Positions 860-17,662 are shown, counted from the stretch's first letter. The stretch is DNA of 20,000 nt from Candidatus Heimdallarchaeota archaeon (GCA_027001645.1 JALTMP010000118.1:1-20000), one strand, 5' to 3'. Notes: generated by a model not told the origin, from the letters alone. Program-made: numbers and translations.

Positions 860-995
860 ACATTTAGAATCTAGAATTTGTTAAGAAATAAGGCTTTACA
901 TTGAAGCTGAAATATAAACTAATGGTGAGAAAAAGAGAGACGCCGGCCAGATTTTGATTTCAAAATTTATTACCTTGCATTTGGATCATACATTA

Positions 996-1697
996 ATGGC
1001 GCGATTGATCCCGCTAATTATGATCATAATGATAATATCAGTGGTAGGAATAGGAATCGTTCCTGTTCAAAGGATCGATGCTCAAGGGGAAAGAGCGGAG
1101 GTCTTCATAAACCGTGATCTCGAAATAATATCGAAACCGTCAGAAGGCAATTCTCTGTTCACGTTCAGTGCGAGTATTACAATCATCAATTACAAGTCAG
1201 AAAACATAGAATTGAAATTCCCCTCCTCTTGCACGTTTAAGATCGGAGTTAATGTATCCTTTGTTGATTCTAGGTTGAGAGCCGAGAGAAAACACGAAGA
1301 TGTGTGCGCACCAGTCGAAACAAAGGTCATTATTAAACCAGGCCAAAACAATTTTAGCGTTGTTGGATCCATCTTGATCTTAGATTGGGCAGATAGAATA
1401 CTTCCAGATGGAAAATATGTACTCTTTGTAACACAGGATTCTTACACAACACCTACAGAATCAGACTATTCTATTCTTGACCCGGAAATCTTTGATAATT
1501 ATGGAGTCATTTTGCTCGTAAATAACGGTAAGTATAGTTTTGAGTTTGATGTTAGCCTGGGGTGTCCTTGCGCATATAACCCCAATAATAATACTGCGGA
1601 TCAAAGCATTACGTTCTCTTCTCTTTTGCTAGGATTCCTCGGACTCGCTGTCATTATGCGTGTCAAACCTTCCGATTCATTTAGAGGAAAAAGGTAG
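996..1697 (+). CDS. Membrane-anchored extracytoplasmic protein of unknown function
   Basis: The track ORF 954..1697 begins at TTG. The ATG at 996 starts directly with the hydrophobic signal MARLIPLIMIIMIISVVGIG. The C-terminal TM is SSLLLGFLGLAVIM. Confidence 0.7.
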   Translation: MARLIPLIMIIMIISVVGIGIVPVQRIDAQGERAEVFINRDLEIISKPSEGNSLFTFSASITIINYKSENIELKFPSSCTFKIGVNVSFVDSRLRAERKHEDVCAPVETKVIIKPGQNNFSVVGSILILDWADRILPDGKYVLFVTQDSYTTPTESDYSILDPEIFDNYGVILLVNNGKYSFEFDVSLGCPCAYNPNNNTADQSITFSSLLLGFLGLAVIMRVKPSDSFRGKR

Positions 1698-1840: not shown

Positions 1841-1850
1841 GCATAAATAA
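1841..1850 (+). promoter_or_regulatory. Candidate archaeal Box A (TATA) element for the downstream structured RNA
   Basis: GCATAAATAA lies about 25-30 nt upstream of the predicted RNA start around 1870-1879, in an otherwise non-coding gap. Confidence 0.5.
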
Positions 1851-1878: not shown

Positions 1879-2020
1879 ACCGCCGTGACCGTAAGTCAAG
1901 CCGGCTGGCGTGACAGCCAGTAGTGAGCTGTGCTCGCGAAAGCTGTCAAGCTCTGGTTCGCCAGGGCCATAGCGGCCGGGTGATACCCGCTCCCATCCCG
2001 AACGCGGAAATCACGGCGGT
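1879..2020 (+). rRNA. Circularly permuted 5S rRNA (candidate)
   Basis: The canonical archaeal 5S 5' half (GGGCCATAGCGGCCGGG...CCCGCTCCCATCCCGAACGCGGAA, about 1964-2009) lies downstream of the canonical 3' half (AAGTCAAGCCGGC...CAGTAGTG...CGCGAAAGC...CTGG, about 1893-1956). Helix I is 1950-1956/1961-1967 with a TTCG loop. Helix II is 1975-1979/1901-1905. Helix III is 1987-1990/2004-2007. Helix V is 1912-1917/1942-1947. Helix IV is 1923-1928/1932-1937. A new terminal stem pairs 1879-1888 with 2011-2020. Confidence 0.85.
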
Positions 2021-2027
2021 TTTTTTT
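2020..2027 (+). terminator. Poly-T terminator for the permuted 5S-like RNA
   Basis: Eight consecutive T residues directly follow the GC-rich terminal stem. Confidence 0.65.
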
Positions 2028-2905: not shown

Positions 2906-3921
2906 GTTTCAACACCTTGATTAGTGAGAACTGATGTGAATGCGTCAGCACCTGCTTTTATCAGCTCTTGTTTAATTTCACTTGCGTGATGAACGTTTTC
3001 AGCGAGAGCAATCATACAGCCACCGCCCCCCGCCCCAGTTAGCTTTGCTCCTAATGCCCCAGATTCACGAGCCACCCAAACATAACGATCCAGTAGAGGA
3101 TGACTCACTCCAAGGGCATGGAGTATCCCGTGATTAATGTTCATCAATTCTCCCAGATCTTCGAGATCATTTTTGAGTAACGCATGAAGACCTTGCTCGA
3201 CGATGTCAGAGATAGAGTCGAAGAGGTTCTGAACAGCTTTTTGCTTTCTCTTAAACAAAGACGCAACATTGGAAACCAACGTAGCTGTTGAACGAGGAAT
3301 TCTAGTATTGGCAATAACCAAAGGGATTTCAGTCGAAAGTTCCTTTCTTTCTGGTTTCTGCCCCTTGATAAAATAGACAAGCCCACCTAATGCGATTACG
3401 GTATTATCAATGCCACTTGGCTTTCCATGAGTGAGTTCTTCGCTTCTAAACGCTATTTCCCTTACTTGTAAAGAATCCACTTCTCCATTGAAAGCGGCCA
3501 AGAACGCCCCAACACTACTTGTCGCTACGGACGCACTACTCCCTAGCCCAGCACCAATGGGGATTTCAGAGTCAATAATCAGAGTCGCGTCAAACCCATT
3601 CATTTCTATCAAATTGAGGACATGATAGAAACCTAATGCTATGGGGTCAAGTGGTGTAGCGTTGCCATTGGATCCAGAGGCTTGTCCCAAGGTACGTAGG
3701 CGATCCGACGAAAAGCTTACTTCAAGTCCCATTGCGGGGGATTTCACGATAAGGTGGGAAACATCACTCTTTTTGATTTTAACTTGTGCACGAGATCTGA
3801 GGTTTAGAGCAACTGCAATGGCAGGGGTTCCATGAACAACAGAGTGCTCTCCAAAAAGAATGACTTTGGCTGGGGCAGTAGCACACCCGGTCATGTTTGA
3901 TCCATTATCCGTCATTGTCAT
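2899..3921 (-). CDS. mvk: Mevalonate kinase (GHMP kinase family)
   Basis: GHMP motifs APAKVILFGEHSVVHGTPAIA, IPIGAGLGSSASVATSS, GKPSGIDNTV and GAKLTGAGGGGCMIAL. Confidence 0.93.
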   Translation of the reverse strand: MTMTDNGSNMTGCATAPAKVILFGEHSVVHGTPAIAVALNLRSRAQVKIKKSDVSHLIVKSPAMGLEVSFSSDRLRTLGQASGSNGNATPLDPIALGFYHVLNLIEMNGFDATLIIDSEIPIGAGLGSSASVATSSVGAFLAAFNGEVDSLQVREIAFRSEELTHGKPSGIDNTVIALGGLVYFIKGQKPERKELSTEIPLVIANTRIPRSTATLVSNVASLFKRKQKAVQNLFDSISDIVEQGLHALLKNDLEDLGELMNINHGILHALGVSHPLLDRYVWVARESGALGAKLTGAGGGGCMIALAENVHHASEIKQELIKAGADAFTSVLTNQGVETC

Positions 3922-5061: not shown

Positions 5062-6993
5062 TTAGGCTTTTCTATATCTTCGAGCAAGGATCGGGATCAT
5101 AGCAAGGGGAATGATGAAGTAAACAGAGGAGAAGGAAACAAAAGAGGTTCCCTCATCTGTTGTTGTGTTTTCCCCGGGTTCACCGGCGGGTTTGAGGGGC
5201 GCAGCTGAAACAAGGTTGGATTCAGGGCTTTTACCTAGAAAATTGACTGCGACGATTTTATAATAATAGGTAATTTCCGGGTATACGCTTGAATCAACGA
5301 AACTGCTCCCTGTCGTTGTGGCATACAGTTTAAATGGTCCCGTCTCTCGGCCACCCCTTAGAATGTATACCTTTTCGATCGGCAAGCCACCAGTATCTGG
5401 AATAGTCCAATTCAGGACAAGTTTACCCTCATCAGGAGTAATCGAGAGGATTGGAGCGCCGGGCTTCGTGAGAATTCCTCTTGAAGTATTTACCATCAGT
5501 GGATTAGATTTAACACCTTCGTTTCCACTTGTGTCTACTGCGGTTATTTCGTACCGGTAGATGAGATCTGGCGTTAAGCCTGTATCATTGAAAACAGTTT
5601 GAGTTTGATTGGCAACAACGGTGTCATTTCGATAAACAAGGTAATACGCAAGGTCATTTTCAGTGTTCTCATTCCATGTTAGCTGAAATGCAGTGGAATT
5701 AAGTACAGTTCCATTCAATCCATGGGGGGAAACAGGCGGGCGGAGATCATATGATCTCCAATCCATATTGAACCATGCATTTACAGGCAGATGGTCTGAA
5801 CCAACCTTTCCACTAGGTGTTTCTCCTGTAGTAGAATTAATCAACGCATCAAAGAAGTATTGATTCACAAAGATGTAGTCGATTCTGCTTTGATAGAATG
5901 GATCAATATAGGTATATCCTGGATTGTAAGGGTTCAATTCACGATACACATCGATAAACTGGTGTTTTTGGGAAGCTCGAGGATCGGAGCTGTTTAGCAA
6001 AATGGAGATTGGTTCATCGCCAAGTGCCAAATCATTTGGTGCCAGATCAGGGTTGTTTGTGTCTACGGGGGAGAACGAATTAAAATCTCCAGCATAAATG
6101 ATAGGAACATCGCCAAGTTCGTCAAAATAGTTGAGAATTCCAATTGTGTCAGCCAAACGTTGTCTTTGAGGAGCTCCTGAAGAATCACTGCAACAACGAT
6201 AGTGAGTGACAACAACGTGGACGTACATACTGCCTATTTCAACTACAGCATCTAGGAAATCATGCGCAGGCTTTATCTTGGTACCGTCATCAAGGGTTAG
6301 GGTCGAGATTTGATTGAACTCAACGATTGGGAATCTGCTGAAAATGGCTTGACCATCAGTGACAGATACTGGTTTCGTAACTCTGACATCGTATGGTGTT
6401 TCATCGGAGAAATACGTGTTGAATTCGTTAAGGATCTCCACTAGCTCAGGATCATTCTCGCTGGTCCAGCCACCAGTTTCAACAGCCACAAAAATATCCG
6501 GATTCTCCTCTTTGACAGCTTCCTTCCAAAGTGGGTTTCGCCCCGTTTCCCAGATATTGTAGTTGAGAAGTTTCCATACACCGCTTTCATAGTTGGAGTC
6601 GACAGTTACCGTAATGGATGCACTGCCTACATTTCCAAAAGCATCTGTCGCCTGCGCTTCTATCGTGTGTTGGCCACTTGTAACGTTGTAAGTATCCCAC
6701 TGATAGATGGTAACATTTTCAGCAACCACGACGTTATCTATGAGGATCTGATACTCAGTAATGGCGGAATCATCAGTTGCATTGAAGTAAATCGTGACAA
6801 TGTCGCCAACAGTTTCATCTGCTGAAGGATTCAGAAAAGTGATGGTGGGCGCGGTAGTATCAGATTGCTGCAAGATCGGTGTTGATTGCTTGCTAAAATC
6901 AATGAAGCCAACCACACTGGCTCCCGATATTGCCAAAGATAAGATGGTAAGAAAAACCAAGAACAGTCTTGTGTTGTGTTTCATATGGATCAC
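5062..6993 (-). CDS. Secreted, membrane-anchored endonuclease/exonuclease/phosphatase-fold protein with Ig-like and fibronectin type III domains
   Basis: Signal peptide NTRLFLVFLTILSLAISGASVVG; Ig-like repeat SADETVGDIVTIYFNATDDSAI...; EEP catalytic motifs YNIWETG, VAVETGG, YAGDFNSFSP, IDYIFVN and GSDHLPVNAWF; two FN3-like repeats (PPVSPHGLNGTVLNSTAFQLTW..., PGAPILSITPDEGKLVLNW...); C-terminal TM plus basic tail (YFIIPLAMIPILARRYRKA). Confidence 0.85.
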   Translation of the reverse strand: MIHMKHNTRLFLVFLTILSLAISGASVVGFIDFSKQSTPILQQSDTTAPTITFLNPSADETVGDIVTIYFNATDDSAITEYQILIDNVVVAENVTIYQWDTYNVTSGQHTIEAQATDAFGNVGSASITVTVDSNYESGVWKLLNYNIWETGRNPLWKEAVKEENPDIFVAVETGGWTSENDPELVEILNEFNTYFSDETPYDVRVTKPVSVTDGQAIFSRFPIVEFNQISTLTLDDGTKIKPAHDFLDAVVEIGSMYVHVVVTHYRCCSDSSGAPQRQRLADTIGILNYFDELGDVPIIYAGDFNSFSPVDTNNPDLAPNDLALGDEPISILLNSSDPRASQKHQFIDVYRELNPYNPGYTYIDPFYQSRIDYIFVNQYFFDALINSTTGETPSGKVGSDHLPVNAWFNMDWRSYDLRPPVSPHGLNGTVLNSTAFQLTWNENTENDLAYYLVYRNDTVVANQTQTVFNDTGLTPDLIYRYEITAVDTSGNEGVKSNPLMVNTSRGILTKPGAPILSITPDEGKLVLNWTIPDTGGLPIEKVYILRGGRETGPFKLYATTTGSSFVDSSVYPEITYYYKIVAVNFLGKSPESNLVSAAPLKPAGEPGENTTTDEGTSFVSFSSVYFIIPLAMIPILARRYRKA

Positions 6994-9348: not shown

Positions 9349-11370
9349 TTATGTTGTTGATTCTGGCTCGAGTTCAAAGGTTCTCAGTTTACGATAAACA
9401 AAAACGGCGAAAACAGCAACAACGCCAACAGAAACAAAGAAGATTAACAGAAAGAAGGGTGAAACGTCATTGTAAGTAGGATCCTCACGTTCAATGAGAA
9501 TCGTTGCTTCCCCGCGTGCAAATCCTAATCCTGCTTGTTTTGCCTCGACAACGATATCCACATAGCCTTTAATCTTACTTCCATTCGGAAGAGCAAACGA
9601 GAGCTCGTGGGTATAATTAGTTGCGGTTGCATTCAACGTGAGATTGTAGCGTGCGAAAACATTGCCAGCTTGGGAAAGCAGAACTTGAACAGTCGCGTCA
9701 CTTGCGGTTTCGTTCAGGTTTTGATAAACGCCGGTTTTTACCATAATTGTGTCGGATTGGCTGTACCGATAGCGATCAGTAATGGTACTATTCACTTGCA
9801 AAAAGCCGTTGAATTTGGCAAGCCAGGGAAGAAGCCGGAGGAAAAAGACATCGTTGTCATTTATCACAAAAGACTGATTCGTGAGGATCAAGTCAGTGGA
9901 CATTGCAGCAAGTCTTCCTCCAAATTGAAGATCTACACCCAAGAAATAAGTGATGTTCCCTGGAAGTGTCTCGTTTGACTGTCGGACACCATCAGTGTTT
10001 GAGTCAAGGAACATATCAGCTGGAGTCTTGAGAATGTCGTAGAGCAAGTATTCTTGTGCAAATAGTGTGTCATTCTGTTTTAACAGGGTTAGATTTAGAC
10101 CAGAAGCATACAATGAAAGAGTGTTTATGATGCGATCGGTCAGTGGTGAAGCCCCATCTAGGAAGGGAGCAACTCCTTTAATGGTTGTAGCAGAAACTGT
10201 GGCGGTTTTAGTCCCGTTCTCACCAACCTTGCCAAATAAGAATTGTCCGTTAGAGACCGTTTGAAGGCCAAAAGTCTCCAAGAGCTTTTGAGCGGACTCA
10301 GAAACATCTTTGCTCACAACGAGGAAGAGAGAACCACCATCCCTGACAAACTGACGGTATGCTTCAATTTCATCGTCCGAAAAGTCATTATTTCCAACAA
10401 CGAGAATGGTCAGGTTATTGTTCTGCAATGTTTCTAATGTGACATCGTCCGTTTGATTGTTCAGAGTTACGCCATAGGATTTGAGAACTGTTTCGAATCC
10501 TTTGAGTGAAGCAGCATTGTCAATACCCCTAGTGTCAAAAAGAATTGTTGCATTTGAAACGGGGGCAACAGTGAATCCGGTTCCAGTCTGGTTGAGGCGA
10601 TAATTGAGCCAATCAGACTTGAGTACCGTTGTTGTGTTGAATTCCACTGATGCGTTTTGCCAAGCAAGGATTCTAAATGAGACAAGAATACTGTCATTAA
10701 TGTTAATATCGTATCCTTTTGCATCCTCACTATTAAGCTCTTTATACAATTCAAGGACAACGACATTATCCCCGGCGTCTGAGAAGTTTGCTCGAACGCC
10801 TCCAGTGTTGTCAAATCCACCGACGTAAGTGTCGTTTTCAACAATTGGAACGGAGTTATCCTTTGTACCATTCATGTAGACAAATGCATCAACAACTGAC
10901 GAATTGTACCTATCAACCACAATCAGATCGTGAGGAGCGTCAGCTGTCCCATACTCTTTCCGCGTTAAATCATTATCGAATTCGAAAGCAAACCAATCAT
11001 GAGTTGCATTATTATATGATAGTGGAGAATTTGTTGGAATAGTATCATTTACGGGGATAAATGAAGGACGGGAAAAATTCAGCATGATGAATAGATGTGT
11101 CCCATTAATTTGGACAAAGAGGTCTCCATTGAACCCAGCATCACCGCCAACGTTTACAGTGGTCTTCGATGCGTTGACCCATTCAAGCCCGAAGGAGCTT
11201 GAGTTGCCATCAAAGGTTGGGGTATTGTTTGCAATGATTGGGATGACAACGGTTTCTGTATCATCTCCCAACACACGAGCAGGACCTGGCGGGCTAAAGA
11301 ATAGAACTGTTGCAAGCAGTGCCAGGATAGATATTCGGGTGAATAATCGACCTCTATTCATATCACTCAC
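9349..11370 (-). CDS. Large secreted surface protein, N-terminal DOMON/carbohydrate-binding-like region, central Rossmann/GATase-like segment, C-terminal TM
   Basis: Signal peptide RISILALLATVLFFSPPGPARV; VNVGGDAGFNGDLFVQINGTHLFIMLNFSRP resembles a DOMON/CBM9-like start; TILVVGNNDFSDDEIEAYRQFVRDGGSLFLVVS; C-terminal FFLLIFFVSVGVVAVFAVFVYRKL. Confidence 0.65.
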   Translation of the reverse strand: MSDMNRGRLFTRISILALLATVLFFSPPGPARVLGDDTETVVIPIIANNTPTFDGNSSSFGLEWVNASKTTVNVGGDAGFNGDLFVQINGTHLFIMLNFSRPSFIPVNDTIPTNSPLSYNNATHDWFAFEFDNDLTRKEYGTADAPHDLIVVDRYNSSVVDAFVYMNGTKDNSVPIVENDTYVGGFDNTGGVRANFSDAGDNVVVLELYKELNSEDAKGYDININDSILVSFRILAWQNASVEFNTTTVLKSDWLNYRLNQTGTGFTVAPVSNATILFDTRGIDNAASLKGFETVLKSYGVTLNNQTDDVTLETLQNNNLTILVVGNNDFSDDEIEAYRQFVRDGGSLFLVVSKDVSESAQKLLETFGLQTVSNGQFLFGKVGENGTKTATVSATTIKGVAPFLDGASPLTDRIINTLSLYASGLNLTLLKQNDTLFAQEYLLYDILKTPADMFLDSNTDGVRQSNETLPGNITYFLGVDLQFGGRLAAMSTDLILTNQSFVINDNDVFFLRLLPWLAKFNGFLQVNSTITDRYRYSQSDTIMVKTGVYQNLNETASDATVQVLLSQAGNVFARYNLTLNATATNYTHELSFALPNGSKIKGYVDIVVEAKQAGLGFARGEATILIEREDPTYNDVSPFFLLIFFVSVGVVAVFAVFVYRKLRTFELEPESTT

Positions 11371-11587: not shown

Positions 11588-11600
11588 TGCATAAAAGATG
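11588..11600 (+). promoter_or_regulatory. Candidate Box A for the 11616/11622-12662 gene
   Basis: TGCATAAAAGATG lies about 20-28 nt upstream of in-frame ATGs at 11616 and 11622. Confidence 0.4.
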
Positions 11601-12662
11601 TTTTTTTCTAATTCTATGTCTATGCCACGACTAGCTGTTGAGGATTCTGAAGAGTATAAGCGCTTGTCATTTGAAATAAAAATCCTCCAACAGCTCAAAG
11701 CATACTACGAAAGTGGGAAGAACTTTTATGACTTTGAGCTAAAGGACGGGGTTAGATTAAGAGATGTCATTGCATTCATGGCCGATTTTGGCTTCCCAAG
11801 ATCTAGTTCTGCGCCAAACATACCCCAAGCAATTAAGAGAATCAATGAAATGATCAAGGAAAGGCAGGACAAGCTAAGTAGCATGAGATTTTCAGAGATC
11901 AAATCACGTGCCCTTGATTCTTTACTCATCATCCCCTCATGGAATAGGCTGCTCAAGCGAAAATTCAATGGGTTTTACCTCAATAAGCCAGTAATAGACC
12001 TAAAAAGAGACACAATTGTCATGCTTACTGCGGGAACAGCGCAAGTTGCAGATTTTTACGGAGACCCTCTCGCAATCATCACAGGACCAGGGATATTCTA
12101 TACCGAATTCAGTATTGAGCCGGGGAAGTATCTGACGAATGTTCGAGAAATTAATATGATCATCATGCCCAAGGAACATTTTGATCGCTTAATTTCAGCT
12201 CCATCAATAGTCCAAGGGAATATCGATGCAACCGTTAATGAGTTAATGTGCATGATGCCGTTTCATATCATTGAGACACCTTACAGCGTTCAAGCATTAA
12301 CGAGAGGGGTTGTTTCAAGAAACGTGTTCCATCCCAACAAATCCGCACTCGACGCCTTGTGGCGTACTTGTAAGGACCCCACGTCATATCACCCCTCACG
12401 TCGATTTTCGGTGCTTAGTGCACACCCTCACTTTTACAATCGACTCTTGTTATCCCACCCGAGAGGATCTCAAGGCGGCACAGAAGACATTTCCTATCAC
12501 TTCGCCAGCGCGGGCATAGCTGCAATCTTGGATAACGCCGATCGACTGGTAGCAGAAATCATGTCAGAAGAACAACAAGCAGAACTCTTGAAAAAATTCG
12601 TCAAAGTAAAGGAAGAATACGCTTCTTTCGGACATGAACTACTCATGAGCTGGGCGCCTTAG
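11598..12662 (+). CDS. Conserved-looking protein of unknown function, 354 aa; the true start may be ATG 11616 or 11622
   Basis: Long ORF on +. A Box A-like ATAAAAGATG at 11591-11600 overlaps the track start, which argues for a leaderless start at 11616/11622 (MSMPRLAVEDSEE). Confidence 0.75.
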   Translation: MFFSNSMSMPRLAVEDSEEYKRLSFEIKILQQLKAYYESGKNFYDFELKDGVRLRDVIAFMADFGFPRSSSAPNIPQAIKRINEMIKERQDKLSSMRFSEIKSRALDSLLIIPSWNRLLKRKFNGFYLNKPVIDLKRDTIVMLTAGTAQVADFYGDPLAIITGPGIFYTEFSIEPGKYLTNVREINMIIMPKEHFDRLISAPSIVQGNIDATVNELMCMMPFHIIETPYSVQALTRGVVSRNVFHPNKSALDALWRTCKDPTSYHPSRRFSVLSAHPHFYNRLLLSHPRGSQGGTEDISYHFASAGIAAILDNADRLVAEIMSEEQQAELLKKFVKVKEEYASFGHELLMSWAP

Positions 12663-15814: not shown

Positions 15815-17662
15815 TCATCTCCAGACTTTGTGTGGTCCGAGTAGTTTATTCTTCCTCATTGTAAGGCGTTCAATCTCTTTTTTCAACTTTCGAATCTTGC
15901 TCTCAATTTTTTCGATTTCTAAATGAACGGCGGAGATTTTTTCTTCAACATTGTCAAGTTTTCTCTTGTAATTCAAAAGGTCCTTATCCAGCGCTTTGAT
16001 TTCTTCTCTTATTCTATCGATTTGAGCAGATTGTTGAGCTTTCCAGCGTCTTTTTTTAAGAATCTGCTTTCTAGTTAGTAATGTTCTCAACTCGCTCTTT
16101 ATGGAATTCGCAACGTCTGTTAGGGTCTGAACTTCTTTTTCCCGCTCATGTTTTTCGTTTTGAATGGACCGCAAACGAGATTTCTTCTCCTTGATTTCTT
16201 GTTCGATTTTTTCAGCATCACGGAGGAAACGGAGCAGGCTCTGGTAATATTTGAATAGGAAATTTGTCGGCTTTTGTCGCTCTTTTGTCTCGGTATTACG
16301 TTGATTACCCAATTCTTCTAGAACATGCGGGAGGTCTTCCACAAAAACAACGGGAATGTTATTGATTTCCTGGAATGGCTCTGGCACACTGCTGACAAAC
16401 AAGGATAGCACTTCTTCTGCCCCAAACTCTTTTCGGATGTGATCTTTCCTTAGCTCCATTTTCTCGACTGCTTTCTCGTAGTAGTTGCGCTTTCTTTCGG
16501 AGCCTCCAAAGATCCAACCTGCCCAGAAGCTGTAATCCTTAACTTCGATCAAAATGTATTTTTCTTGCTTTTCAGTGCTTCTGGCAATCATGTCAATCTC
16601 AGTAATGACACGATCGTCATCGCCTTCGTTTTCTACCACTTCGTATCTTGTGTTGACAATTTCCCATAGGGGCGATTCTTCAATAATATCTCTTACGGCT
16701 TCTTCTGCTAATCTTGCTTTGTCTTCCAGTTCCTCTAGGTCAAATGATTCGAGAAAAGTGGTGAATAACATAAAGGCTTCAAGCCCAATGAGGAAGACAA
16801 CTTTGCCTTCTTCCTCTCCTTCATAAATTGAGACTTGATGGGCGGGCTGTTCGATTCTCTTAAGATTAACATCACTTAAAGCATACAGAGCTTTGGCTGT
16901 TGATGAGTGAATTTTTAGCTTCAGTTTAAATAGAGTTCCGTGAGCAGTTGAGATTTCTGGCATTTCTCGCAACTTATGGCTAAGCCGTATTAACGCTTCA
17001 ATTTGCTCCGGTGTAAGCATGGTCATCGATCTGTAGAATGTGACAGGTGATCGAAGGAACATCAGAAATGCATTTCTGCGATGCAGTTCTAACACAGAAA
17101 GCGGAATATCCCAGTCATGGAATCCTTTACGATAATGAGTTCTTCGTTGTCTTTTCTTTCTCCACTGCAATCGCGCAACGTCAAGAGCGGTTCCCGCTAC
17201 TTTGACATCAAAAGAATGAATACGACTAAAGTGTCTTTCTCCACGCTCGGTTGGGCGAAGTTCGCCATTGACTTCTTCAAAAAGGCGGTTTTTGATAGCT
17301 TGTCTAAGAGTATGGATAAGAACTAGTTCAGAACCGAGGATTGCTAATTCACGGGTGGCACGGCTGATAGGAAGCCCTCTTGATGGTTGGGGTCTCCAGT
17401 CTTCCCACCGAAGAATTGTGTGCAATACGACATCGCATCCTGAGAGCATAATAATGGCAGGAAGACGAATCTGCGTAGTAAATTCTTCTCTAATCTTAAT
17501 GAGTTCCTTTATTAGCTCTCGTTTAGAATATTCAGAGGCTAGTTGATAGATTCTAGTCTTGACATATTTCCAGCGATCCTCCAGAATTTCTTGGGCATTC
17601 TTGTTCGACACAAATTGATCTGCACTTATTTTCCGAGGTTCTCGCTCCATTAAACTCTCCAA
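15815..17662 (-). CDS. Large protein with PD-(D/E)XK-nuclease-like segment and long C-terminal coiled coil
   Basis: RVITEIDMIARSTEKQEKYILIEVKDYSFWAG matches the D-Xn-ExK pattern. The last ~150 residues are Lys/Glu-rich heptads. Confidence 0.6.
   Translation of the reverse strand: MESLMEREPRKISADQFVSNKNAQEILEDRWKYVKTRIYQLASEYSKRELIKELIKIREEFTTQIRLPAIIMLSGCDVVLHTILRWEDWRPQPSRGLPISRATRELAILGSELVLIHTLRQAIKNRLFEEVNGELRPTERGERHFSRIHSFDVKVAGTALDVARLQWRKKRQRRTHYRKGFHDWDIPLSVLELHRRNAFLMFLRSPVTFYRSMTMLTPEQIEALIRLSHKLREMPEISTAHGTLFKLKLKIHSSTAKALYALSDVNLKRIEQPAHQVSIYEGEEEGKVVFLIGLEAFMLFTTFLESFDLEELEDKARLAEEAVRDIIEESPLWEIVNTRYEVVENEGDDDRVITEIDMIARSTEKQEKYILIEVKDYSFWAGWIFGGSERKRNYYEKAVEKMELRKDHIRKEFGAEEVLSLFVSSVPEPFQEINNIPVVFVEDLPHVLEELGNQRNTETKERQKPTNFLFKYYQSLLRFLRDAEKIEQEIKEKKSRLRSIQNEKHEREKEVQTLTDVANSIKSELRTLLTRKQILKKRRWKAQQSAQIDRIREEIKALDKDLLNYKRKLDNVEEKISAVHLEIEKIESKIRKLKKEIERLTMRKNKLLGPHKVWR

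Follow-up and report, generated by a model that had tools for sequence, protein, structure and literature searches.

Positions 1880-2019 on the plus strand of a 20,000-nucleotide (nt) stretch of DNA from a Candidatus Heimdallarchaeota archaeon (GCA_027001645.1, JALTMP010000118.1:1-20000; here called the window) form a small transcription unit that holds a circularly permuted 5S ribosomal RNA (rRNA) gene of an archaeon. The 3′ part of the 5S rRNA comes first (1895-1956), a UUCG tetraloop follows (1957-1960), and the 5′ part stands last (1961-2009). An earlier note made from the sequence had claimed such a permuted gene, and the claim is borne out by the sequence itself, by the comparison of rotated and unrotated covariance models, and by conservation in 13 loci. 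Some of its details have to be revised. The core was near 5S length as the note had it, but measures 115 nt (1895-2009) and not about 117, and the breakpoint is the conserved AA bulge within helix III, in the beta domain, instead of the internal loop between helices II and III. The note had also overlooked a terminal helix of 9 base pairs (bp) at 1880-88/2011-19, a central helix of 4 bp and two bulges of 3 nt each. The features of the locus are as follows.

1837-1842 and 1843-1850, plus strand: predicted archaeal promoter, a GAAAGC resembling the B recognition element (BRE) and a TATA box, ATAAATAA, 29 nt 5′ of the terminal helix
1870-1879, plus strand: predicted transcription start region and short leader, TTGCTGAATA, from the spacing between TATA box and start and from conservation
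1880-1888, plus strand: 5′ (leader) strand of the terminal helix, CCGCCGUGA, pairing with 2011-2019 in the predicted fold and by covariation
1889-1892, plus strand: CCGU, leader strand of the central helix, pairing with GCGG at 2004-2007 (4 of 4 bp)
1893-1895, plus strand: bulge A, AAG, with a predicted endonuclease cut between A1894 and G1895 from the geometry of the sequence
1895-1956, plus strand: 3′ part of 5S, comprising GUCAAG, helix II 3′ strand, loop A, helix V, loop E, helix IV and helix I 3′ strand (positions 1-65 of the rotated model)
1957-1960, plus strand: UUCG tetraloop linking the natural 3′ and 5′ ends of helix I, from sequence and fold
1961-2009, plus strand: 5′ part of 5S, comprising helix I 5′ strand, CAUAGC of loop A, helix II 5′ strand, helix III and loop C (CCCAUCCCGAAC), up to the AA bulge (RF00001 positions 1 to about 55, posterior near 1; positions 71-119 of the rotated model)
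2004-2007, plus strand: GCGG with a dual role, in the mature fold as the 3′ strand of helix III, in the precursor as a strand of the central helix, from the folds and the comparison of 13 loci
2008-2010, plus strand: bulge B, AAA, with a predicted cut between A2009 and A2010
2011-2019, plus strand: 3′ (trailer) strand of the terminal helix, UCACGGCGG, the perfect complement of CCGCCGUGA
2020-2027, plus strand: run of eight T directly 3′ of the terminal helix, a putative archaeal oligo-T terminator judging by its sequence

The minimum free energy (MFE) fold of 1865-2030 has -68.3 kcal/mol (z = -3.3), and none of 200 shuffled sequences was as stable. It contains helix I (1950-56/1961-67), helix II (1901-07/1973-79), helix III (1987-90/2004-07), helix IV (1923-28/1932-37) and helix V (1911-17/1942-48) in addition to the terminal helix, so that all the helices drawn by hand in the earlier note, and the fusion of helix I by UUCG, are found in it.

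Rotated and unrotated models of 5S rRNA

An Rfam scan of the window returned no family at its gathering score. At E <= 10, RF00001 matched 1959-2049 with 29.5 bits, short of the 38 bits at and above which a sequence counts as a colinear member of this family, and the alignment is truly good only for model positions 1 to about 55 on 1959-2013, with junk beyond. All 4227 Rfam families searched at the same threshold gave only RF00001 and a chance-level match to isrK; the model of the permuted mitochondrial 5S rRNA (mtPerm-5S), with which the earlier note had proposed to compare the locus, gave no match.

Two covariance models, R1 and R2, were made from the same seven bacterial 5S rRNAs and the same 30 base pairs, the model being rotated in place of the query. 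For R1 the order was rotated at a point within the beta domain that has the AA bulge on one side and the GU of helix III on the other, and a UUCG linker was added; R2 was left unrotated. The seven training sequences (84-109 bits to RF00001) were bacterial false positives of the genome pattern scan described below, aligned as they stand (alignment A3) and after rotation at the position homologous to the breakpoint of the window (alignment A2). On the window R1 scored 56.0 bits (E 2.8e-12) with the full model over 1895-2009, whereas R2 scored 29.7 bits on the 5′ half alone. Normal bacterial 5S genes, used as a control, gave 115-126 bits with R2 and 35-53 bits with R1. The score thus rises strongly on rotation compared with both R2 and RF00001, as had been expected of a permuted gene, and the full-length match of R1 against the half matches of R2 and Rfam identifies the locus as a complete 5S rRNA in circularly permuted order. 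Read in the rotated order, it possesses the five helices along with loop C and loop E (AGUA/GAA), and its length is near 120 nt. Among the relatives, R1 scored 42.6-59.3 bits on 12 intron-free loci, and R2 gave 24-39 bits or no match and was never full-length.

At one contig end of the relative Dive96_bin2.176 (L015 77-196), RF00001 reaches 38.4 bits, above the gathering score of 38, by joining the 5′ half to unrelated downstream sequence. Annotation pipelines can thus call a bogus colinear 5S gene at permuted loci.

Relatives, covariation and the bulge-helix-bulge motif

The locus is present in four independent assemblies (an ENA assembly, the NCBI metagenome-assembled genome (MAG) GCA_027016885.1, and two Logan assemblies of separate runs) and is therefore not the assembly artefact that the earlier note had considered. 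Counting its relatives there are 13 loci with 12 distinct sequences and one common breakpoint, in two deeply divergent Asgard groups, Heimdallarchaeota-labelled and Jordarchaeia, which are named by their NCBI labels and not by phylogeny. A scan of species-representative genomes with a degenerate DNA pattern demanding the permuted order gave 24 matches, 15 of them false. The true matches were in archaeon Dive96_bin2.176, in the Candidatus Heimdallarchaeota MAG PIR-30, in two Jordarchaeia MAGs, and in one Thermoproteota-labelled MAG, where the proteins encoded nearby share 46-63% identity with those of Jordarchaeia. A metagenome scan with a three-part pattern returned four loci, three of them true and largely redundant, and six more lineages were reached through contigs carrying a Jordarchaeia-specific neighbouring gene. 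Dive96_bin2.176 has the element at four contig ends (L010 1-137, L011 3907-4046, L015 1-137 and L017 1-140) and thus carries at least two near-identical permuted copies that break the assembly, one syntenic with the window and the other in a different context.

All the false matches were rejected on reading the sequences. Fourteen came from normal 5S genes of bacteria that happen to have GTCAAGCC upstream; the remaining one, the archaeal L024 (MAG SMAG_U8133), was coding sequence. L024 also has two transfer RNA (tRNA) matches 166 and 105 nt long (950-1115 and 3817-3921), which are presumably intron-containing tRNA genes. Two neighbouring genes were discarded as synteny anchors. Linkage of 5S to isopentenyl phosphate kinase is confined to the genus of the window, there being no 5S at that place in PIR-30, L037 and L038, and the TFB-like open reading frame (ORF) of L017 and L033 is a paralogous transcription factor and hence unusable.

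The MFE fold of each relative has the same architecture. In the model-guided alignments A4 and A5, which lean to the structure of the model although that model is bacterial, 91.2% of the cells of the core helices are paired across 12 sequences and 17 of the 30 pairs show compensatory double changes. For helix I these are 8 of 9 pairs, against 3-5 in slid controls, and its loop is YNCG (UUCG, CUCG, UACG or CACG) in all 13 loci while the stem below is wholly changed. Helix II of the Jordarchaeia looks partly unpaired in A4 and A5, where the bacterial model places bulges; aligned by hand it is a continuous 9-bp helix, CCCACAUGC/GCAUGUGGG. A MAFFT alignment of the Heimdall-type and Jordarchaeia-type sequences (A1) misplaced helices IV, V and I and was used for the terminal helix only.

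The flanks are conserved as well. BRE/TATA-like boxes at a fixed distance and downstream T-runs are kept in both groups. The motif AAAGCAT(A/T)(A/T)AT stands at the same distance in Dive96 and PIR-30 as in the window; its promoter-like counterpart at the Jordarchaeia loci, AAAGCTTTATATT or AAATGTTTATATTT, stands 24-27 nt upstream. The start region was placed from the usual archaeal spacing of about 26 nt from the centre of the TATA box and from conservation; TTGCTG of the leader is kept in every Heimdall-type copy. T-rich runs follow the element in the relatives.

In seven aligned sequences pairing of the terminal helix reaches 100% of the cells, whereas slid controls do not exceed 49%; compensatory changes occur in 5 of 13 pairs, and all nine distinct variants among the 13 loci (9-13 bp) pair fully. 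These counts argue that the terminal helix is under selection. Between it and the core lies a bulge-helix-bulge (BHB) geometry. The central helix is CCGU/GCGG in the window, CCGC in Dive96 (U-G to C-G) and CGUG/CACG in most Jordarchaeia, with 4 of 4 bp in 11 loci and 3 of 4 in the other two, and the unpaired stretches are exactly 3 and 3 nt in 13 of 13 loci, bulge B being AAA, GAU or GAA. Forming the BHB conformer costs 1.1 kcal/mol over the MFE fold in the window and 0.3-1.7 kcal/mol in most lineages. A strict hBHBh′ motif at the termini was rejected on account of the missing inner helix; what is present is a relaxed BHB, with a 4-bp helix and 3-nt bulges made from leader and trailer and a rudimentary inner helix, in a transcription unit whose 3′ segment stands upstream of its 5′ segment.

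BHB motifs are cut after the second nucleotide of each bulge, and this rule was applied throughout. The predicted junctions (slash at the joint) are then CGGAA/GUCAAGCC or CGGA/AGU(C/U)AA in 13 of 13 loci, so that cutting and ligating would restore the canonical RNA in each. In the window the predicted junction GCGGAA/GUCAAGCC equals the Rfam consensus ggAAguUAAG with its canonical 2-nt AA bulge, and the AA is partly duplicated at both ends of the core. The spacing between terminal helix and core (5′/3′) is 6/3 nt in the window and in the S9B3 lineage and 7/2 nt in most Jordarchaeia, and the predicted junction is kept despite this shift: the register of bulge B co-varies with bulge A, and the product is constantly CGGAA-GU(C/U)AA.

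The cut rule was calibrated on an intron within the family. The permuted 5S of one lineage of Jordarchaeia (labelled 'Freyarchaeota'; L045-47, L052 and L053, from three metagenome assemblies) contains an intron of 32 nt, which in L052 (gene 5233-5414) lies at 5352-5383 in the 5′ strand of helix III. R1 scored 17.3 bits on this lineage with filters off, a poor score owing to the insertion. The intron forms a canonical hBHBh′ with outer helix GGGAA/UUCUC, central helix CUAC/GUAG, bulges CC/A and AA/G and a 9-bp inner helix. With its borders set by homology to L049, a relative that lacks the intron, each border lies precisely behind the second nucleotide of its bulge, which confirms the cut rule on this 5S RNA family. 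The 5S precursors of these organisms are thus very probably substrates of the splicing endonuclease and ligase, as judged from the intron sequence. Searches of the full-text literature turned up no 5S rRNA gene reported to have an intron.

Predicted maturation and its alternatives

Our preferred reading, to which we give a rough probability of 0.7, is that an Asgard archaeon near the Heimdallarchaeota-labelled MAGs has its functional 5S gene at 1880-2019 and that the transcript of this gene would be spliced and ligated into a circle. The dedicated promoter and the oligo-T terminator would yield a transcript of about 150-160 nt with the 3′ 62 nt of 5S, the YNCG tetraloop on helix I, and then the 5′ 49 nt. 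Leader and trailer would pair (9 bp), and CCGU would pair with GCGG of the 3′ strand of helix III to give the BHB with a 3-nt bulge on each strand. The tRNA-splicing endonuclease EndA would cut after A1894 and after A2009, and RtcB would ligate A2009 to G1895 to give the canonical ...GAACGCGGAA-GUCAAGCC..., whereupon helix III could refold. The product would be a covalently closed 5S rRNA of 115 nt that would most likely stay circular in the 50S subunit. Products predicted in this way measure 115 nt for the Heimdall-type loci and, for the four sequences of Jordarchaeia type that were computed, 122 nt; as circles they fold into the standard 5S shape. The junction predicted for the window reads ...GAACGCGGAA/GUCAAGCCGG..., and the junction k-mers, absent from the DNA, would be CCCATCCCGAACGCGGAAGTCAAGCCGGCTGG for the Heimdall type and TTCCGAACACGGAAGTCAAGCCC for the Jordarchaeia type. 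The predicted circles of 115 and 122 nt and their junctions can be sought in existing metatranscriptomes. Asgard archaea are reported to encode an (αβ)2 EndA with an L1 loop that has been linked to relaxed BHB recognition (PMC5829648), which matters here because the terminal motif has no proper inner helix.

The earlier note had proposed that, if this is the only 5S gene, the ribosome would use a 5S rRNA with displaced ends. The premise of a permuted gene stands, but displaced ends are not the best reading, since the predicted BHB product restores the canonical sequence in 13 of 13 loci. The conserved BHB of leader and trailer and the restored junction suggest that the displaced ends are most likely removed and joined, leaving an endless circle. 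Given processing, we lean slightly towards a circle that persists, because the natural ends are bridged only by a conserved stable tetraloop, because the nearest precedent, an archaeal signal recognition particle (SRP) RNA discussed below, stays circular, and because circular 23S rRNA is now reported within archaeal ribosomes (PMC12918454). That the Jordarchaeia and the Heimdallarchaeota-labelled lineage have a sole 5S that is obligately circular, and need ligation by EndA and RtcB before folding and entry into the ribosome, we regard as an even bet.

Several points weigh against the preferred reading. Cleavage, ligation, persistence of the circle and use by the ribosome are all predicted from sequence. 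The motif is relaxed: on its core side bulge A has no continuous inner helix, only a 2-bp proximal stem of helix III and a multiloop, so that it resembles a bulge-helix-loop, and the central helix can form only if helix III is open in the precursor. In the S9B3_HD70/Ga0180301 lineage a G-A mismatch in the central helix raises the cost of the BHB conformer to +5.6 kcal/mol. Only two Asgard groups with few independent lineages are represented, so that the covariation of insertions and deletions amounts to few events. That this is the only 5S gene has indirect support, from the closed Heimdallarchaeum genomes in which 5S genes could not be predicted and from the Asgard loci retrieved, about 0.4 Mb, which showed no normal 5S gene; but this search covered those loci only and the rest of the genome of the window was not scanned. 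Finally, the description of one Jordarchaeum MAG lists a '5S rRNA gene', which might be spurious or partial in the way of the 38.4-bit match in L015.

An unlikely alternative is that the circle is only an intermediate, re-opened in or near the tetraloop of helix I to give a conventional linear 5S rRNA. Permuted tRNAs mature in this manner (PMC3218864; Soma 2007), and archaeal pre-16S and pre-23S circles are usually re-linearised. The natural ends are joined here by 4 nt only, however, a stable YNCG on a G+C-rich helix that looks like a selected cap and not like a spacer, and re-opening would leave helix I with only 7-8 bp. It also runs counter to the circular state of the SRP RNA (PMC4731332), and to that reported for 23S rRNA in archaeal ribosomes (PMC12918454).

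Quite unlikely, in our estimate, is a mature linear RNA, in which the transcript, at most lightly trimmed, would keep its permuted order, with helix I capped by the tetraloop and with ends in a helix of 9-13 bp protruding from helix III. The strong conservation of the terminal helix by covariation is what one would expect of a part of a mature RNA, the three-way junction that it implies is the MFE fold, 5S rRNA of brown-algal mitochondria is permuted in its final product (PMC4267664), and large insertions into 5S rRNA are tolerated in some prokaryotes (PMC7530397, PMC7812874). A protruding helix leaves unexplained why four bases of the leader pair with the 3′ strand of helix III, why both unpaired stretches are exactly 3 nt long, why the AA is partly duplicated on both ends, and why the offsets shift jointly between 6/3 and 7/2 such that BHB cutting restores the canonical length; a mature three-way junction gives no reason for this constant sum. 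The region of the AA bulge in helix III is a contact area for ribosomal proteins. It is at this bulge, universally conserved in the Rfam consensus, that the helix would have to emerge.

That the locus is a 5S pseudogene left by rearrangement, resembles 5S by chance or is a chimera of the assembly, with the true 5S elsewhere, could draw on the missing Rfam call at the gathering score and on the part of the genome outside the scan, but is effectively refuted by the identical arrangement in the four assemblies, the one breakpoint shared by 13 loci of two deeply divergent groups, compensatory changes in every helix, the conserved promoter and terminator, the two or more copies in Dive96, an E-value near 1e-12 against the rotated model, and the failure to find 5S in closed Heimdallarchaeum genomes (PMC8813620).

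Known systems, annotation and neighbouring genes

The closest known system is the permuted SRP RNA of Thermoproteus tenax and T. uzoniensis, which becomes a functional circle via BHB splicing (Plagens et al. 2015, eLife, PMC4731332). It too is a universal structural RNA of the single-copy type with its 3′ part upstream of its 5′ part, has a BHB of leader and trailer in which a 4-bp helix is flanked by 3-nt bulges, and was a canonical gene 'missing' from the annotation in a host with a heterotetrameric EndA of relaxed specificity. Its maturation to a circle by endonuclease and RtcB is experimental, whereas ours is a prediction. Unlike the SRP RNA, the 5S rRNA is a component of the ribosome, is found in Asgard archaea and not in Thermoproteales, has its natural ends capped by a YNCG of 4 nt, and is permuted across two Asgard classes and not in a few species.

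Permuted tRNA genes (Cyanidioschyzon merolae, Soma 2007; Thermofilum pendens, Chan et al. 2011, PMC3218864) likewise have the 3′ half first and a BHB of leader and trailer that is cut and ligated into a circle. Their circles are re-opened by RNase P and tRNase Z at the acceptor stem, in contrast to the 5S loci, where no such signals are evident and the cap is a stable tetraloop.

The parallel with stramenopile mitochondrial 5S rRNA, which the earlier note had drawn, holds in that both are permuted, but is a loose analogy. In brown-algal and other stramenopile mitochondria (Valach et al. 2014, PMC4267664; mtPerm-5S) helix I is likewise replaced or closed by a hairpin, the ends lie elsewhere and standard models miss the gene. 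These RNAs are organellar, however, with ends at the three-way junction of loop A and helix I replaced by a 5′ hairpin, and they undergo no ligation and stay permuted in the final product; the breakpoint of our locus lies in helix III.

In archaeal 23S rRNA (Pyrococcus furiosus, PMC7758197; Thermococcus barophilus, preprint; PMC12918454), an rRNA of the large subunit is also circularised in a BHB-dependent manner and the junction persists in mature ribosomes. Those genes have the usual order, and it is only the transcript that becomes permuted or circular, whereas here the gene itself is permuted, so that ligation would be obligatory to restore helix III. Circular 5S RNAs with joined natural 5′ and 3′ ends are on record from Sulfolobus and Halobacterium (Danan et al. 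2012, PMC3326292). They differ in coming from a normal gene, in low abundance, in lacking validation by reverse-transcription PCR, in an unknown function and in a junction at helix I, but a circular 5S of this type could plausibly have been a stepping stone in evolution.

No account of an archaeal 5S rRNA that is permuted, circular by design or interrupted by an intron was found in the full-text literature searched, in which subscription journals are thinly covered; the earlier note likewise knew of no archaeal example. To our knowledge this is the first chromosomally encoded permuted 5S rRNA. According to a 2022 paper on two closed Heimdallarchaeum genomes (PMC8813620), 5S genes 'could not be predicted' there, a gap that would be explained if these genomes carry the permuted arrangement. 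If the preferred reading is true, 5S would be the last rRNA added to the archaeal rRNAs that pass through, or stay in, circular form, and the tRNA-splicing machinery would have an essential ribosomal RNA added to its 'moonlighting' tasks. If the obligate circle is also the sole 5S, ribosome biogenesis in close relatives of eukaryotes would depend on RNA-splicing machinery for all three rRNAs. Shared to the nucleotide by two Asgard classes, the breakpoint offers Asgard phylogeny a rare genomic character, and would then point to a single ancient permutation, or to transfer, within Asgard archaea.

Standard tools (Rfam and, by extension, barrnap and RNAmmer) detect half of such a gene at most, and MAG quality scores that call for 5S are distorted as a result. 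Gene callers also set hypothetical ORFs or over-extended starts over the permuted 5S DNA (L054 2971-3135, L052 5142-5378, L014 1293-1640), with N-terminal over-extensions across it in L048 (4001-5113) and L055 (5027-6130), and the 'conserved' short ORFs of a BLAST comparison are translations of the RNA gene. With a permuted covariance model, annotators could locate such genes and delete the bogus ORFs that overlie them.

The neighbours of the locus in the window are ordinary archaeal genes, for isopentenyl phosphate kinase, mevalonate kinase, L7Ae, S28e and a CLC channel. Small GTPases of the Arf/Gtr1 type are encoded on the longer source contig, in keeping with an Asgard archaeon. Near 5S loci of relatives there are Arf/Ras/Roc-type small GTPases and Roadblock/LC7 (LAMTOR-like) proteins (L035/L036 6858-7436, L052 16918-18648 and L054 410-2524), a gene content typical of Asgard archaea that supports the taxonomic assignment.

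Three ORFs of the window have no Pfam match, with 354 amino acids (11598-12662, plus strand), 615 (15815-17662, minus strand) and 247 (954-1697, plus strand); the product of the 615-residue ORF has a long C-terminus rich in lysine and glutamate that is probably a coiled coil. A protein of 673 amino acids encoded at 9349-11370 on the minus strand is probably secreted and membrane-anchored, and has weak matches to DUF4350 (E 8e-9) and to the GIFT domain of IFT52 (E 2e-6); a GIFT-like domain in an Asgard archaeon might interest students of eukaryotic signature proteins.

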